Below are positions 1 through 39,822 of a stretch of DNA of 64,000 nt, piece after piece (position 1 is the stretch's first letter; every line of letters starts with the position of its first letter). The position numbers and the translations under genes are program-made. Origin of the DNA: an uncultured bacterium (GTDB lineage Bacteria; Patescibacteriota; Patescibacteriia; UBA1558; GWA2-36-10); the NCBI GenBank assembly GCA_903855135.1, contig CAINYB010000006.1:29631-93630 (forward strand), written 5' to 3'. The notes below the pieces were generated by a model. The model saw only the letters and a list, made by a program, of their open reading frames with translations, was not told where the DNA came from and did not search any database.

Positions 1-699
1 TCTTGATCCTCGCCACTATCGCATCATGCACTTCGGCTGGTAACTCCACCTTATCATGTAATTCGCCATCTATTCTAAATCTGATCACGACAGCGTCAGG
101 TAAGGCCTCGATATGAATATCAGAAGCTTGATCAAATAAAGCATACTCTAAAATCACATCAACGATTTGGATAATCGGTAAGTCCAACTGACTTGGTGTA
201 CCTTGGACTTGTTTAAATTTTTGGTTAATAATTTCATGCAACTCTTCGGTAATATTTTTTTCATACAAATGAGCAGCGAAAAAGAAATTTTTACTACTAG
301 TTAAATATGGCGCAATTGGTTTTTTTAAAGATTGAGTGACAGCATCGACACTTTCTTTTCTCAAAGGATCAACAAAAGCTACTTTTATTTTATCCTGTTC
401 AATGGCAAAAGGAATAGCTTGATTGTCACGCGCAATTTTTTCGTCTAATAAATTGACAATTTCTGACTCTAATTTTATTTTACGTAAATTAGCATATGGC
501 ACTTTAATCAAGTCTCCAAGTAATTCATATAAAAATAGCTCATTAAAAAAACCTCTCTCTATCAATACTTCTTCGATAGCGCGACGACGACGAGAGGCGT
601 TTTTTTTCGCGTTTTCCCAATCAGTTTCCGTGATAACTTTTTGGGCTAACAATACTTTTTTTATTTCTTCTTCGGAAATTGGTAAACTTGAACTGGCCA
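1..699 (-). CDS. Type IV pilus/type II secretion ATPase PilB/GspE, N-terminal portion; the C-terminal ATPase half lies beyond the window edge
   Basis: My own translation of the minus strand from ATG at 699 is open to position 1. It contains the GspE/PilB N-domain signature IQIVDVILEYALFDQASDIHIEALPDAVVIRFRIDGELHD. It is absent from the ORF track because the frame has no stop inside the window. Confidence 0.7.
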
Positions 700-782
700 T
701 AATATATTTAAAGTAATTTAAACTAAATAATTATTTATATTATACCATATTTTAGAAATAAACTATAATTTATTTTATTCGT

Positions 783-804
783 GTCCCCGCGTACGCGGGG
801 AAGA
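783..804 (-). terminator. GC-rich hairpin (tccccgcg-tac-gcgggga) downstream of the FG-GAP/LDT gene; exact 20-nt copy of 50321-50340
   Basis: Perfect 8-bp GC stem in AT-rich background immediately 3' of a minus-strand stop; identical sequence recurs at 50321-50340. Confidence 0.6.
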
Positions 805-833
805 CGAAAGAAGTATTGATTTAGAAAAATATT

Positions 834-2213
834 TTATTCGTGGATAATTACTTTAGTGCCAAGTGCTGTAATGTTGTATAAATACTCTGCTGGGCCAACA
901 CCTAAGCGTACACAACCATGAGAAGCTTTCTTTCCTAAATGTGCTTCACCCTCTTTGTAGCCATTTGGCCACTCTGGTAATTCATGTAAACCATAGCCTT
1001 TTTGGACATTAAAGGCCATCCAATAAGGCATATAAAGTCCATAAGCTCTTGAATATCGCCTTTCTTGCTTATAATCTACAGTGAATTCGCCTATTGGCGT
1101 CGGCATCCTGTCTAAGCCAGAAGATACGGGAAAGCTAGCTATTTCTATGCCATGATAAGCATAAACTTTGAGATTTTGTTCACTTAAATCAATGTCGATA
1201 TACTTTTCTACATCGGTTCGGCCAGTGGTTTTATGGGCGGGAAAAAATAATAATTTATTTTCTAAGTCAACTAAATTTAAACCAGTTAATAAATCTGGAG
1301 CAAAGGCCATGAATTCATTTTTCAAATTACCAAAGCCATCAAAAATTTTTACATGTGGTCCACCTGATAGTTGCGGTACGGTGATAATTTCCTCTTTATT
1401 ATCATTATCTATATCTAAAGCTAAAACTTCAAATCCAGCTTTAAATTTTTCTTCATAAGTCAAAAAACTATTTACTTCAGAACCATCTAAACGATAAATA
1501 TAAAGTTTTGGATAACGATCAGCATCAGAAGCTAGTAAAATTTCATCCATTTCGTCACCACCCAAATCTACACGAGTGATCTTAAAATCTGGTCCCAAAT
1601 CATAAGGCACGATAAAATTAATGTCTAAATTTTCACCAAAACGATTAAAAACTTTGACGTGAACTTGATTATTTTCATAAATAGCCGTGGCTATTTCTCG
1701 TCGGCCATCTTGATTAGCATCGATACTCGCTACTTTGACGCCACTATTTGTTTTGGGGAAAGCAAACCATTCTTTGCCAAATTTTAGCTCACCATAGCCA
1801 TTAAATATTCTGACATGAGAACCACCACTGCCATTTACACCAGTAATAATCTCTTGTTTATTATCACCGTCTAGATCTCCAACCGTTAATTCCACGCCTT
1901 GAGTCATATCTTCTTTATAGGCTAGCCAGCTTTTTATTAAACTGCCATCTTGCCTCAAGATTTTTACATAAGGCAGACCCTTTTTTTTGGTACTTAAAAC
2001 TAATTCATCCATGCCATCGCCACCAAGATCAACTGAAGCGATATTAAATTCACTAAAATCTTGTAAATTTTCTGTTGACCACAAAAAATCACTGACTGTT
2101 TTATCAGTCGGTGACCATAAACGGCCGCGATCAAAATCAATCGCGCCAAAAACTATCTTTGGAGTTAAAAATATAAAGCTAAACAAAAAGTAATATAGTA
2201 TCTTTTTGTGCAT
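834..2213 (-). CDS. Secreted protein with FG-GAP/VCBS-like repeats and a C-terminal L,D-transpeptidase (YkuD) domain
   Basis: N-terminal signal peptide; repeated DLGGDGMDE / GDLDGDNKQEI / DANQDGRREI / DLGGDEMDE / DIDNDNKEEI calcium-binding-like repeats; C-terminal ...GKKASHGCVRLG motif typical of the YkuD catalytic Cys region. Confidence 0.6.
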   Translation of the reverse strand: MHKKILYYFLFSFIFLTPKIVFGAIDFDRGRLWSPTDKTVSDFLWSTENLQDFSEFNIASVDLGGDGMDELVLSTKKKGLPYVKILRQDGSLIKSWLAYKEDMTQGVELTVGDLDGDNKQEIITGVNGSGGSHVRIFNGYGELKFGKEWFAFPKTNSGVKVASIDANQDGRREIATAIYENNQVHVKVFNRFGENLDINFIVPYDLGPDFKITRVDLGGDEMDEILLASDADRYPKLYIYRLDGSEVNSFLTYEEKFKAGFEVLALDIDNDNKEEIITVPQLSGGPHVKIFDGFGNLKNEFMAFAPDLLTGLNLVDLENKLLFFPAHKTTGRTDVEKYIDIDLSEQNLKVYAYHGIEIASFPVSSGLDRMPTPIGEFTVDYKQERRYSRAYGLYMPYWMAFNVQKGYGLHELPEWPNGYKEGEAHLGKKASHGCVRLGVGPAEYLYNITALGTKVIIHE

Positions 2214-3821: not shown

Positions 3822-6567
3822 GACAATGTTTATATTTTTTACCAGAGCCACAAAAACAAAGATCATTGCGACCAATTTTATGACCGCTAGCATCTTTTGG
3901 TTTAGTAGCTAAAACTTGATTAGCTTGAGCCCTTTCCTCTACTTGCTGTTGAAAAGGACTAAAGCCTTGCTTTTGTTCATTGAATTGTCGCATTTGCTGA
4001 ACTTGGGGTGCGGCCATTTTACGAGCAATACCGACTTTAAAAATAGCATAAACTATTTGTTGGCGAATAGCATTAATCAAACTATTAAACAATATAAAAG
4101 CTTCACGTTTGTACTCTACTAGTGGATCACGCTGTCCGTAGCCCTGTAAGCCAATACCGGTACGTAATTTGTCCATGGCCGTCAAATGCTCTACCCATAA
4201 AGTATCCACGCTACGCAAGACTAAACCGCGCTCGATCATCTGCATCGGGGCGATTTGCTCATCATTAATATCAATCGAGCTGTTGATAGTTTCGGTTTGC
4301 TCCTGATATTTTGTTTTGGCTAAAGCCTGCAAATAAGTGATTAATTCTGTGCGAGCAACATGATCATGACTTTTTTCTACTTGCTCTAATAATTCTTTGA
4401 TTTTTGCAATCTCCTCTTCAGAAACAGTAAAAATATTTTTGATAGTTTCGATGATTTCTTGAGGATTGAAATCACCGTGCTCTTCTTTACCTAAAGTATG
4501 AAAAGAAACCACTTCTTCAATTTCTTTATTGATTTGTTCTAAAACAAAATTTTGTGCTAATTCTGCTTTAGCTGTTTTGTCATTGATGTCCGTAAAAATA
4601 GTCAAAAAGTTTTGACGTAGTTTATAAACTACTTGACGATGTTTATTTATCACATCATCATACTCGACTAAATGTTTACGAATATCAAAGTTATGACCTT
4701 CTACTTTTTTCTGAGCAGCTTCAATAGAATTAGAAATCATTTTATTTTCAATGGCGGTTTCTTCATCCAAACCCAAAGTAGTCATCAATGATTTGATTCT
4801 ATCAGAGCCGAAAATACGCATCAAATCATCATCCAAAGAAATATAAAATTGAGAAGAACCAGGATCACCCTGACGACCAGCACGTCCTCTGAGCTGATTG
4901 TCGATACGACGAGACTCATGTCTTTCGGTACCTAAAACATGCAAGCCACCTAAAGCTTTTATTTCTTCGTGTTTATCTTTATCAAAAGGTATACCACCCA
5001 AAACAATGTCCACACCTCTACCAGCCATATTGGTCGCTACCGTAACAGCACCTTTTTTACCTGCCTGTGCTAAAATTTCAGCCTCTTTAGCGTGCTGTTT
5101 AGCATTTAAAAGACTAAAAGGAATACCAGTTTTTTCTAGCATTGCTGCTAGCTCTTCATTTTTTTCGATAGAAACTGTACCGACTAGCACCGGCTGACCA
5201 GCCTGATGTCGCTCTTCGATTTCTTTGACAATAGCCTTGAGTTTACCGCGATAAGATTTATAAATACGATCTTTTTTATCATTTCTGACAAAAGGCTTAT
5301 TACCCGGCACTACTGTCACATCTAAGCTATAGATTTTAGCCATTTCTTCGGCTTCAGTTTCGGCTGTACCAGTCATACCAGCTAGCTTGTCATACATTCT
5401 AAAATAATTTTGGAAAGTAATGGTGGCCAAAGTCATGCTTTCTTTTTGAACTGATACTCCTTCTTTGGCTTCGATGGCTTGATGTAAGCCCTCAGAATAT
5501 CTACGACCTTCCATCATACGGCCAGTAAATTCATCGATGATGATAACTTCATTATTTTTCACCACATAATCTCTGTCTATCTGAAATAAAGTTTTCGCAC
5601 GCAAAGCTTGCTCCAAGTGATGAATAGTGCTTAAACCATGACTTTCATAAATATTATCAACGTTGAGTAATTCTTCCATTTTTTTCACACCAGCTTCTGT
5701 CAAAGTAGCCGTGCGCATCTTTTCATCGATATTATAATGCTCATCTGCTTGTAAAACATTGACTAGCTGAGAGAACTGTTGATATTGAGCAGCTGATTCT
5801 TCGGCTGGTGCGGAAATAATAAGTGGAGTTCTAGCTTCATCGATCAAAATACTATCGACTTCATCGACAATAGCATAGTGCAAACCACGTTGCGCTTGTT
5901 CGTCTATGCTTTGCGCCATATTATCACGCAAGTAGTCAAAACCAAACTCATTATTAGTACCATAAGTAATATCAGCATTATAGGCTTCTTTTCTGGTCAC
6001 TGACTGTAAATAATCAGTCACCACTTTGACACCAGCATCTCGTGTCTGATCATCTTGAGTGTCAGCTGCTTGTTTATTATAAATAAAAGAAGCATCGTGC
6101 TGAATCACACCGATACTCAAACCTAAGAAATCATAAATTTGGCCCATCCAAGTAGCATCACGTTTAGCTAAATAGTCATTGACGGTCACGACATGCACAC
6201 CTTTGCCTTCTAAAGCATTTAAATAAACAGCTAAAGTAGCGGTCAAAGTCTTACCTTCACCAGTTTTCATTTCCGCGATTTGACCTTGATGTAAAACCAT
6301 GCCGCCTAATAACTGCACATCAAAATGTCTTTGCTTCAAAGTACGAAAAGCAGCTAATTTGACTAAAGCAAAAGCTGGCACTAATAGCTCTTCTAAATTA
6401 GCACCGGTTTGGGCTTGAGTTTTTAATTCAAGTGATTTAGTTTTTAATTCTTCATCAGATAAATCTTGCCAAGCTTGTTCTTGCTTGTTTATTTCTTCAA
6501 TCTGTGGATTTAATTTATCTAAAAAACGTTGGTTGGCATCGCCGAAAATTTTTTGTATCCAGGACAT
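3811..6567 (-). CDS. secA: Preprotein translocase ATPase SecA
   Basis: 918 aa; DEAD-like motor motifs (KTGEGKTL, DEVDSILIDEARTPLIIS); C-terminal zinc finger CFCGSGKKYKHCHG. Confidence 0.95.
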   Translation of the reverse strand: MSWIQKIFGDANQRFLDKLNPQIEEINKQEQAWQDLSDEELKTKSLELKTQAQTGANLEELLVPAFALVKLAAFRTLKQRHFDVQLLGGMVLHQGQIAEMKTGEGKTLTATLAVYLNALEGKGVHVVTVNDYLAKRDATWMGQIYDFLGLSIGVIQHDASFIYNKQAADTQDDQTRDAGVKVVTDYLQSVTRKEAYNADITYGTNNEFGFDYLRDNMAQSIDEQAQRGLHYAIVDEVDSILIDEARTPLIISAPAEESAAQYQQFSQLVNVLQADEHYNIDEKMRTATLTEAGVKKMEELLNVDNIYESHGLSTIHHLEQALRAKTLFQIDRDYVVKNNEVIIIDEFTGRMMEGRRYSEGLHQAIEAKEGVSVQKESMTLATITFQNYFRMYDKLAGMTGTAETEAEEMAKIYSLDVTVVPGNKPFVRNDKKDRIYKSYRGKLKAIVKEIEERHQAGQPVLVGTVSIEKNEELAAMLEKTGIPFSLLNAKQHAKEAEILAQAGKKGAVTVATNMAGRGVDIVLGGIPFDKDKHEEIKALGGLHVLGTERHESRRIDNQLRGRAGRQGDPGSSQFYISLDDDLMRIFGSDRIKSLMTTLGLDEETAIENKMISNSIEAAQKKVEGHNFDIRKHLVEYDDVINKHRQVVYKLRQNFLTIFTDINDKTAKAELAQNFVLEQINKEIEEVVSFHTLGKEEHGDFNPQEIIETIKNIFTVSEEEIAKIKELLEQVEKSHDHVARTELITYLQALAKTKYQEQTETINSSIDINDEQIAPMQMIERGLVLRSVDTLWVEHLTAMDKLRTGIGLQGYGQRDPLVEYKREAFILFNSLINAIRQQIVYAIFKVGIARKMAAPQVQQMRQFNEQKQGFSPFQQQVEERAQANQVLATKPKDASGHKIGRNDLCFCGSGKKYKHCHGK

Positions 6568-39094: not shown

Positions 39095-39150
39095 AAGATT
39101 ATGATAACATTTGCTTGAATTTTAGTAAATGCTAATTTTTACAAACTAAA

Positions 39151-39633
39151 AAGGCTTAAATTAGCCTCATAAGCCGAATTCTGTTCTCCAGCAAGCTGGA
39201 GTGATGATCATCTATCTAGGACTATGATTGCCCATAGCCTCAAGCAAGCTACCCGATCCCGCTTAGCGGGACCCTATTTGCTCTTGCACCGAATAGAGTT
39301 TAGCTCTTTTAGCTTGTCACCAAGCTAACGGGTCAGCTCATTATCTGACCATTTCACCCTTATCCTTCGATTCGGCCTTGCGGTCTCACTCAGGAAGGAA
39401 TACTCTCTGTTCAACTTGTCCTGACCACTTAGTCGCCCAAATGGCCGGTTGTCGTTAACAACTATCCTCCATTTAAAAATGGAAAATGGTGTTCGGACTT
39501 TATCCTCCCTCCTTCGCTGTCGCTACGCGCCAGCTACGGACGGGCAGGCCCCGCTAAATTGTAGGGCTTGCCGTACGAAGCTCAAACGCAGTGAGAGCGA
39601 AGGACGGCGATCATCTCGGCTAATTTAAACCTT
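39151..39633 (-). ncRNA. rnpB: RNase P RNA (bacterial type), not in ORF track
   Basis: Minus-strand transcript contains GGAGGAUAAAGUCCGAACACC (CR-I/P4 5' strand), AAGGGUGAAAUGGUCAGAUAAUGAGCUGACC (CR-II/P10.1-P12 pattern) and ACAGAAUUCGGCUUAU (CR-IV/P4 3' strand). P4 shows compensatory GG to AA and CC to UU changes relative to E. coli. P1 helix GGUUUAAAUUAGCC/GGCUAAUUUAAGCC closes the molecule. Lies in a 750-nt ORF-free gap of elevated GC. Confidence 0.8.
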
Positions 39634-39641
39634 AGAATTGA

Positions 39642-39670
39642 TTTATAACATATTTACTATTTTTTGTCAA
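39642..39670 (-). promoter_or_regulatory. Sigma70-type promoter for rnpB: TTGACA-17 nt-TATAAA
   Basis: Minus-strand TTGACA (39665-39670) and TATAAA (39642-39647) with 17-nt spacer; predicted TSS about 7-8 nt downstream coincides with the 5' strand of the P1 helix. Confidence 0.55.
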
Positions 39671-39675
39671 ATCAA

Positions 39676-39701
39676 GGCCCTACTAAGGATTTAGCAGGGC
39701 C
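39676..39701 (-). terminator. Hairpin ggccct(a)ctaa-ggat-ttag(c)agggcc directly after the small ORF stop
   Basis: 10-bp stem with one internal mismatch, 1 nt after the TAA at 39703-39705. Confidence 0.5.
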
Positions 39702-39702
39702 A

Positions 39703-39822
39703 TTAAACACCGGATGTTTTGTTCTTGTATCGCTTTTTAAAGCCTCCCCAATCACCATCGATCGGGAAAAATAAGGCTAAGGCGATTCCCATCAGCATGA
39801 TGGAAATAAACAGGCTTTCCAC
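39703..39822 (-). CDS. Possible small hydrophobic protein (39 aa, GTG start) with strong Shine-Dalgarno
   Basis: GGAGGA 5 nt upstream of GTG; translation VESLFISIMLMGIALALFFPIDGDWGGFKKRYKNKTSGV; own hairpin terminator. Codon usage is GC-richer than neighbours, so it could instead be part of a structured RNA. Confidence 0.25.
   Translation of the reverse strand: MESLFISIMLMGIALALFFPIDGDWGGFKKRYKNKTSGV

Follow-up and report, generated by a model that had tools for sequence, protein, structure and literature searches.

The window analysed here, a stretch of 64,000 nucleotides of DNA to which all coordinates refer, contains an interval without long open reading frames (ORFs) between 39095 and 39850, and the questions that this locus raises are what the interval encodes, where that gene begins and ends, and what accounts for its length. 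An earlier note, made from the sequence alone, had singled the interval out as ORF-free and rich in GC and had placed an RNase P RNA of about 480 nt on its minus strand, at 39151-39633. When only ORFs of 100 aa or more are considered, it is indeed the largest gap, at 756 bp, the runner-up measuring 429 bp, and it includes a conserved 39-aa ORF at 39822..39703. The GC content of 39151-39633 is 0.493, compared with 0.348 for the whole window. Taking all of the evidence together, we consider it very probable that the minus strand from 39633 to 39151 specifies a 483-nt type A RNase P RNA which would retain, in its P3 helix, a module of unusual size.

Identity and Boundaries of the Gene

A search of the whole window with Rfam covariance models matched RF00010, the bacterial class A RNase P RNA family, with a score of 156.7 bits where the gathering score is 100 (E = 1.4e-48), as the identification in the earlier note had led one to expect. 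The alignment lies on the minus strand, at 39557..39157, and covers the full model (positions 1-367). A tRNA-Gln gene was the sole other RNA gene detected in the window. The conserved regions named in the note are present together with those that it had left unnamed: CR-I (GAGGAUAAAGUCCGAAC), CR-II (ACAGAGA), CR-III (AAGGGUGAAA), CR-IV (CUAGAUAGAU) and CR-V (ACAGAAUUCGGCUUA) were all found, and their key bases are invariant in 37 relatives.

The ends of the molecule required closer attention, since the 5' end in the Rfam alignment is not the one that the sequence favors. When 39640..39145 was folded thermodynamically (z-score -7.4), the outermost element was a perfect 16-bp P1, formed by AAGGUUUAAAUUAGCC (39633-39618) and GGCUAAUUUAAGCCUU (39166-39151), followed by P2 and, between P2 and CR-I, a long hairpin. 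A P1 in this position delimits an RNA of exactly 483 nt, which reproduces the coordinates given in the note to the nucleotide, as well as the approximate length estimated there. The Rfam 5' start at 39557 is thus 76 nt too late, a displacement that arises because the model takes the distal 3' arm of an expanded P3 for P1, P2 and P3; mis-threading by RF00010 of the same kind was seen at three related loci (L095, L042 and L031).

It could be argued instead that the RNA is the 401-nt molecule set by Rfam (39557..39157) and that 39633..39558 is a 5' leader which is removed. RF00010 does report a full-length match across 39557-39157, and a weak promoter-like site (TTGAGC-16-TACAAT) ends at 39558. 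Against this, the P1, P2 and P3 so bounded are replete with non-canonical pairs and carry low posterior probabilities, whereas the outer P1 and P2 pair without a mismatch in the window and show covariation among the 37 relatives. Moreover, relatives with a short P3 lack any equivalent of 39557-39545, yet possess the same outer P1 and P2 straight after a conserved promoter. The covariation of P1 and P2, together with their shared position after the promoter, therefore establishes that the RNA spans 39633..39151, and a leader-bearing 401-nt molecule is extremely improbable. In this instance the earlier note places the boundaries more accurately than the Rfam covariance model does.

Secondary Structure and Covariation

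The RNA was threaded by hand onto the type A architecture, and 37 full-length relatives, aligned with MAFFT, served to score the threading. Position n of the RNA lies at window coordinate 39634-n. The elements of the threaded RNA, all on the minus strand and listed from the whole gene and then 5' to 3', are as follows.

39151..39633, minus strand: rnpB, complete bacterial type A RNase P RNA gene, 483 nt (RF00010, threading and covariation)
39618..39633, minus strand: 5' strand of P1, AAGGUUUAAAUUAGCC, pairing perfectly with 39166-39151; 84.4% of cells paired
39609..39615, minus strand: 5' strand of P2, GAUGAUC, pairing with GAUCAUC at 39209-39203; 98.8% paired, 7 of 7 pairs covarying
39507..39607, minus strand: P3, an irregular hairpin of 101 nt with a GC content of 0.63, folding as a single hairpin at -56.9 kcal/mol
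39492..39507, minus strand: CR-I and 5' strand of P4, GAGGAUAAAGUCCGAA, with an AU insertion in J3/4 and a bulged U137; A133-G140 invariant
39468..39483, minus strand: J5/7 hairpin of 16 nt, UCCAUU-UUUA-AAUGGA, an insertion relative to RF00010
39309..39398, minus strand: P12 (39398-39358), J12/13 (GGGUGAAA), P13 (39350-39331) and P14 (39328-39309) with a GUGA loop, from the covariance-model alignment
39246..39283, minus strand: P15 and P16 with internal loop L15 containing CGGGUAG; P15 94.7% paired
39220..39239, minus strand: P18 with a GCAA tetraloop (RNA positions 395-414); 94.7% paired, 8 of 8 pairs covarying
39203..39209, minus strand: 3' strand of P2, GAUCAUC, with CR-IV (CUAGAUAGAU) just before it, placed by pairing and invariance
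39186..39201, minus strand: P19 hairpin of 16 nt, CUCCAG-CUUG-CUGGAG; 85.9% paired, 6 of 6 pairs covarying
39171..39184, minus strand: CR-V and 3' strand of P4, ACAGAAUUCGGCUU, invariant in 37 of 37 sequences
39151..39166, minus strand: 3' strand of P1, GGCUAAUUUAAGCCUU, followed by UUUAGUUUG, a possible termination signal (terminator-like site)

The type A architecture fits, and all of the proposed pairs are canonical in the window. Across the 37 relatives, 84.9% of cells in threaded pairs were paired, against 31-46% when the 3' partners were slid by 1-3 columns; the covariation score was 0.333 versus at most 0.111 in controls, and none of 500 shuffles reached the observed values. P1, P2 and P4 both pair and covary and P3 forms one hairpin, so that the failure of P1-P4 pairing that the note had named as grounds for doubting its identification did not occur. 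All 14 outer pairs of P1 have changed on both sides among the relatives. In P4, RNA positions A134-G136 and C138-A142 pair with U456-U463, leaving U137 bulged, and the covariation in this helix to which the note had pointed was borne out: CCGAA and UUCGG are paired in 99.7% of cells, with two A-U pairs replaced by G-C in one or two relatives. P13 (RNA positions 284-303; 69.6% paired) and P14 (306-325; 86.6%) likewise have pairs that changed on both sides. Because the variable P3 and J5/7 regions are badly aligned by MAFFT, values of 50-69% paired there were not counted against those hairpins, and P3 was judged by single-sequence folds in place of the pairing in the alignment.

In bacterial RNase P the active site is built from P4 together with the conserved junctions; the T stem-loop of the tRNA is recognized by the S-domain (P7-P14), the 3'-CCA of the tRNA pairs with the GGU of L15, and RnpA binds near P2, P3 and P15. 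The window RNA has a type A core composed of P1-P2-P3, P4, P5, P7-P11, P12-P14, P15/16 with the GGU-containing CCA-binding loop, P18 and P19. The CGGGUAG of L15 (RNA positions 379-385) includes this GGU, and the tRNA-Gln gene of the window encodes its CCA; P16 forms a 7-bp hairpin that a UAA loop closes off. The RNA bears the marks of type A, namely the S-domain helices P13 and P14, and P18 with a GNRA loop, type B being recognized by P10.1 and P15.1. No P17 and no P6 pseudoknot were found in the threaded window RNA. The usual type A site of the 5' strand of P6 is occupied by the J5/7 hairpin, in a P5.1-like position, so that this segment forms a hairpin of its own; the same hairpin occurs unchanged in L014, L114 and L115, longer hairpins take its place in other relatives, and its pairing in the poorly aligned MAFFT region is 50-60%. 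The absence of P6 and P17 does not exclude membership of type A, because these elements are variable in type A and often absent in CPR (PMC8172020). The RNA agrees with RF00010 in every testable defining feature except the variable P6/P17 element.

Members of RF00010 such as E. coli M1 RNA and the RNA of Thermotoga maritima share this core (P1-P5, P7-P15, P18 and, optionally, P19). The window RNA differs from class A in having a P3 of 101 nt rather than about 20 nt, an AU insertion in J3/4, two P4 pairs that are A-U instead of G-C and a J5/7 hairpin, in having neither P17 nor P6, and in its length of 483 nt compared with the 367 positions of the model. By analogy with these enzymes, the RNA may be expected to act with an RnpA encoded elsewhere and would then cleave the 5' leader from pre-tRNAs. 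A 7-nt complementarity between the 5' arm of P3 (UCUCACU) and P12 (AGUGAGA) was considered and dismissed, as about 0.2 such occurrences are expected by chance (an estimate).

Promoter and Termination Signals

The sequences around rnpB contain the signals expected of an independent transcription unit.

39676..39701, minus strand: intrinsic-terminator-like hairpin closing the upstream unit; 11-bp stem with 6 G-C pairs, then a T run
39665..39670, minus strand: -35 hexamer TTGACA, read from the sequence; TTGACA-like in 31 of 37 relatives
39642..39650, minus strand: extended -10 element TGTTATAAA, with TG at 39650-39649 and TATAAA at 39647..39642, ending 8 nt before P1

The arrangement corresponds to the TTGACA-17-TATAAA promoter ahead of P1 that had been described in the note; the spacer is 17 nt, and 31 of the 37 relatives likewise have a -35 resembling TTGACA and a -10 of the form TAnnn(T/A), ending 3-14 nt before P1. 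A generic promoter scan missed this promoter because it demands T at position 6 of the -10 hexamer, which is A here. The scan listed instead the weak internal site TTGAGC-16-TACAAT, which was rejected as a start since both the outer P1/P2 and the conserved promoter contradict it. As the position of the promoter before P1 is conserved, the predicted transcription start coincides with the first base of P1 or lies no more than about 2 nt from it, a placement that is well supported by this conservation. The terminator-like hairpin that ends the upstream unit, which is conserved in L014, L115, L117 and L119, isolates rnpB as a unit of its own. At the 3' end of the gene there is a terminator-like site at 39168..39151 with a T run, and a T-rich tract follows directly after P1 in 20 of the 37 relatives.

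Together these features suggest that rnpB would be transcribed independently, from a promoter of the sigma-70 type (TTGACA, a spacer of 17 nt and the extended -10 TGTTATAAA), and that the transcript would end at or just past the 3' strand of P1 with a U-rich tail; the exact ends are predictions read from the DNA.

The Expanded P3 and Its Contribution to RNA Length

The 37 RNAs have a median length of 395 nt (range 325-608) and a median P3 of 21 nt (quartiles 18-27). All 37 P3 segments fold as single hairpins, and only 5 of them are 90 nt or longer. The 101-nt P3 of the window, a quasi-continuous duplex of about 45 bp, supplies some 80 of the roughly 90 nt by which the RNA exceeds the median of its clade. 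The suggestion in the note that lineage-specific helix expansion makes this RNA longer than typical type A RNAs thus holds, with the refinement that the expansion is essentially that of one helix, to which the 16-nt J5/7 hairpin and the 16-nt P19 add a little.

Large helix extensions, as well as missing helices, are already on record for the RNase P RNAs of CPR bacteria (Lui, Nielsen and Arkin, 2021; PMC8172020), the examples shown including an extended P15 and a missing P12 or P15. The same study found that these RNAs needed manual refolding and that their Rfam scores were often below threshold, that helices of the P16/P17 type were often missing, and that the CCA-binding motif is frequently lost in CPR, GGU being absent in 23 of 35 RNAs (PMC8172020). 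The window RNA belongs to the same group and displays the same phenomena, but it scores above the Rfam threshold and has kept its GGU. The study describes neither a module of about 100 nt common to P3, P12 and P19 nor closely matching copies inside a single gene. Since the RF00010 model mis-threads P1-P3 of this essential gene in the presence of a long module, automated pipelines that annotate CPR genomes will truncate or mis-fold rnpB, and trouble with the annotation of rnpB in CPR is consistent with the difficulties already described (PMC8172020).

A Module Shared by P3, P12 and P19

The inner part of the window P3 resembles the long P3 of two other loci, L031 and L095, with alignment scores of 57-68 compared with shuffle means of 33-38 (standard deviation about 4.5). 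A module profile (nhmmer) and a covariance model, R1, were built from five copies; the window P3 matches R1 at 64.5 bits. Copies of the module occur in different helices of the rnpB genes.

In P3: the window, L031, L095, L080 and L119
In P12: L095, L080 and L045
In P19: L090
A related type of module: L066 (P3 and P19), L088 (P19) and L041 (P19)

The consensus contains 39 pairs, 11 of them with compensatory changes, as derived from five sequences of which two are near-duplicates, and includes conserved bulges and a 4x4 internal loop. Under both the profile and the covariance model most copies score higher on the forward strand than as the reverse complement. Pairwise alignment is a poor guide to orientation here, because hairpins resemble their own reverse complement.

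Searches with blastn-short, nhmmer and R1 detected no window-type module outside rnpB in 618 kb of sequence, comprising the full 64 kb of the window from this genome and rnpB-centred loci of other genomes. In viral contigs, 120 loci share the most conserved motif of the module, all by chance, and none fits the model. A permissive scan of Rfam for a family corresponding to the module alone gave chance-level matches only (E at least 0.65), and Tandem Repeats Finder (minimum score 30) reported no tandem repeats in 39100-39700. Neither a K-turn nor any other known motif for protein binding was recognized in the module. Within the sequence sampled, the family is found only inside the rnpB genes of Patescibacteria. 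The gene is of a known kind and its architecture is modestly novel; the most interesting aspect is the module family. Long helices in CPR rnpB are already known, and the family itself looks new, as we found no description, in a literature of which our coverage is incomplete, of a module shared by P3, P12 and P19 or of near-identical copies in one gene.

The copies within a single gene can be strikingly similar. P3 and P12 are 96% identical in L095 (98-100% in the arms) and 91% identical in L080, and P3 and P19 are 96% identical in L066; the same helix compared across genomes is 50-76% identical, versus 91-96% within one gene, a pattern that suggests clustering of the copies by genome and not by helix and points to concerted evolution. 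The presence of such P3/P12 or P3/P19 copies in one ribozyme suggests that peripheral helices have been duplicated or homogenized within the gene. The closest relatives, in which the GT4 glycosyltransferase DNA is 85-90% identical to that of the window, differ in the state of their P3. In L119 the P3 module departs from that of the window by three single-base indels in about 97 nt (about 97% conserved), while the flanks are 87% (GT4) and 76% (spacer) identical. The L014/L117/L118 group has an unrelated P3 of 19 nt, and the P3 of L114, L115 and L120, CUUCGC-GUAA-GCGAAG, equals the basal stem of the module with a tetraloop cap. The simplest history would place the module in the P3 of the ancestor of the clade, with several subsequent losses or truncations; in other lineages, intragenic duplication or gene conversion may have carried it between helices.

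This leaves a natural series of expansion segments, from the window and L119 (long P3) through L114 and L115 (base and GUAA) to the L014 group (unrelated short P3), against which the role of such segments in a ribozyme can be explored. That the module is better conserved than the DNA on either side of it speaks for selection acting on the RNA, and its repeated loss among the closest relatives argues against an essential role.

Possible Fates and Roles of the Module

We propose that modules of about 100 nt cap P3, P12 or P19, that they would be copied or homogenized between the helices of one gene and truncated repeatedly in some lineages, and that each would constitute a peripheral expansion, kept in the mature RNA by purifying selection and directed away from the active site, catalysis presumably proceeding as in any type A enzyme. 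P3, P12 and P19 can tolerate additions of 100 nt because they project away from the active site. Whether such a module would be kept in the mature RNA, be cut out of it, or be a passenger at the DNA level is weighed below; of these, we consider retention the likeliest, excision the next and a dispersed selfish repeat the least likely.

Intervening sequences reportedly interrupt helices of bacterial rRNA, and the rRNA genes of CPR are said to carry insertions. The rRNA elements, hairpins roughly 100 nt long, take the place of terminal loops, occur sporadically and are excised by RNase III. If the P3 extension were an intervening sequence like those of 23S and 16S rRNA, cut out by an enzyme such as RNase III and not followed by religation, the RNase P RNA would consist of two pieces joined by P1, P2 and the base of P3. 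The extension has the appropriate size and site, being about 100 nt long, replacing the terminal loop of a conserved helix and forming the quasi-continuous duplex described above; its presence varies from one close relative to the next (P3 measures 101 nt in the window and in L119 but 16-19 nt in L014, L117, L114, L115 and L120); and related elements occupy different helices, as do the rRNA intervening sequences. P1 (16 bp), P2 (7 bp) and the P3 base (about 11 bp) would be able to hold the two fragments together. The module thus resembles these elements in size, site and patchiness, with the difference that the host molecule is an RNase P RNA. What weighs on the other side is that bulges, internal loop and orientation are conserved across the host helices, and that the module is about 97% conserved between the window and L119 where the flanks are 76-87% identical; both observations suggest that a specific RNA structure is constrained, and not merely a cleavable duplex. 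Excision is for these reasons rather unlikely; if it did take place, the locus would offer a natural case of an RNase P RNA in fragments.

The extension might alternatively be a selfish palindromic DNA repeat of MITE- or REP-like type, neutral to its host and moving between helices at the DNA level. Its patchy distribution and the near-identical copies within one gene would fit such an element, and hairpin-forming repeats are tolerated in terminal loops, as with the cyanobacterial RNase P RNAs that reportedly carry STRR repeats in P12. STRRs consist of heptamers repeated in tandem and are abundant throughout the genome, and the P12 insert varies among relatives and is dispensable for catalysis. 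Module and STRR are both lineage-specific, occupy the end of a peripheral helix in a type A RNA and vary among close relatives; the module, in contrast, is a structured hairpin, lacks tandem repeats and is found only in rnpB. Recurrence outside rnpB was encountered in one case, L066, where the AT-rich tip of that genome's own module is also present about 4 kb away, and this would favor a mobile repeat. For the window type, on the other hand, no copy outside rnpB appeared in the 64-kb window, the 618 kb of related loci or the 120 viral loci; there are no tandem repeats and, apart from the hairpin itself, no obvious terminal inverted repeats or target duplications; and conservation of the window/L119 module in excess of the flanking DNA, with compensatory changes that keep the stems paired, is not what a neutral repeat would be expected to show. 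We regard a selfish origin as improbable, more so than excision.

Retention of the module in the mature RNA, the reading that we prefer, would leave room for a function. It is conceivable, though we put this forward tentatively and would not expect it to be correct, that the module is an RNase P-specific element of Patescibacteria which was copied between P3, P12 and P19 and selected for recruiting a partner peculiar to the lineage, either a protein or another module that bridges the catalytic and specificity domains. The same peripheral helices are elaborated in archaeal and eukaryal RNase P and MRP, where L7Ae K-turns are found in P12 and Pop6/Pop7 on P3; the resemblance is an analogy only. 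If a partner were indeed recruited it would be a new RNase P cofactor, and the module would represent a bacterial step towards the protein-decorated P3/P12 platforms of archaeal and eukaryal RNase P.

Genomic Context and Host

A motif search of the 64-kb window for an RNRxKR-type motif of RnpA found none. When genome contigs were scanned with the CR-I pattern GAGGATAAAGTCCGAAC, 29 loci were obtained, of which 5 contain an RNase P RNA, most of the loci being chance matches in unrelated genomes; a Saccharibacteria locus, L011, was rejected as an RNase P RNA, being a chance match in a coding region.

The genes around rnpB fit the cell-wall polysaccharide cluster in which the note had placed it, with GT4 glycosyltransferases, a Bac_transf sugar transferase, DUF4012, a MurJ-like flippase, two MreB genes, MreC and PBP2 among the neighbors; further neighbors are GreA and LepA. 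The gene order GT4 glycosyltransferase - rnpB - Bac_transf is kept in genome and metagenome loci, and the adjacency of rnpB and Bac_transf is conserved in most of 80 related metagenome loci. The host is an uncultured bacterium of the Patescibacteria (CPR), with a genome recovered from metagenomes. The best homologs of the neighboring proteins come from Komeilibacteria, Nomurabacteria, Parcubacteria or Patescibacteria, and a near-identical locus, L014, belongs to Parcubacteria group bacterium GW2011_GWA2_36_10.

Gene Neighborhood of rnpB

The neighborhood of the RNase P RNA gene (rnpB) is unusually stable across the Patescibacteria. Among 80 metagenome loci fetched for comparison (L034-L113), rnpB lies directly upstream of the sugar phosphotransferase gene Bac_transf in most, and this adjacency persists down to approximately 40% protein identity, with the two genes sometimes on opposite strands. 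Two further loci, L008 (CAZXZY010000001.1) and L018 (CAZWYP010000003.1), come from metagenome-assembled genomes whose public titles read "uncultured Gammaproteobacteria"; both are syntenic with the Patescibacteria window across rnpB, the glycosyltransferase gene (GT4), and Bac_transf, and these genes share 58-66% identity with it. The labels are probably wrong. Two features flank rnpB in the window:

39703-39822, minus strand, 39-aa ORF with a GTG start and ribosome-binding site AAGGAGGA
39101-39129, minus strand, TTTACT-17-TATCAT, TG-extended promoter-like site (promoter scan)

The ORF is flanked by GT4 and rnpB, and a terminator (39701..39676) comes after it. Its predicted product, MESLFISIMLMGIALALFFPIDGDWGGFKKRYKNKTSGV, is hydrophobic at the N-terminus and basic in its tail, with no Pfam match on record. 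The ORF is retained in seven other loci (L014, L114, L115, L117, L119, L120, and L121), and carries a gene call in L114 and L121. In L114, one close relative of the window, approximately 620 extra bp lie between the small-ORF terminator and the rnpB promoter (4290-4960); this segment bears its own promoter-like site (TTGACA/TATATT) and encodes a 107-aa ORF without a Pfam match.

The promoter-like site falls past the 3' end of rnpB and ahead of the Bac_transf start codon (39094). On the basis of this site, the downstream polysaccharide genes may be expressed from a promoter of their own rather than by read-through from rnpB.

Repeated Hairpins and Mosaic Structure Within rnpB

In three loci, the same approximately 100-nt hairpin is present twice in one RNase P RNA, in a different helix each time:

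L095, 2238-2342 and 2479-2590, hairpin copies in P3 and P12
L080, 2359-2488 and 2689-2793, hairpin copies in P3 and P12
L066, 897-1008 and 492-621, hairpin copies in P3 and P19

The two copies within each gene share 91-96% identity and differ mainly in their apical loops. Further internal repeats were seen in the 538-nt rnpB of L100 (2396-2933), where hairpin CCAGUUUGCGAAAACUGG is present in J5/7 as well as P12, and AT-rich AAUUAGA/UUAGUAG-type repeats are shared between P3 and the P15/16 region.

Identity was compared by region between two rnpB genes:

L066, 455-1037, minus strand, rnpB
L088, ~674-1179, minus strand, rnpB

The flanking genes are approximately 81% identical, the promoter/P1/P2 end of rnpB 84%, and the end comprising P18, the P19 module, P4, and P1 90-100%, whereas the center (P5-P15, the specificity domain) shares only 30-46% identity. 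The architecture of this domain also differs in type, since the GGUGAAAAG, P13/P14-like region of L088 is missing from L066. The two genes are mosaic, and such divergence between similar ends and flanks suggests recombination or domain replacement within rnpB.

In L066, the P3/P19 module ends distally in an AT-rich tip that includes …UUCGUAUAUUUGCGCGCAUUCGUAUAUUCGCGAUUAC…; a relative of this tip lies outside rnpB, approximately 4 kb away (L066:4389-4465), hinting that in this module type at least the tip is a dispersed repeat nested within the hairpin.
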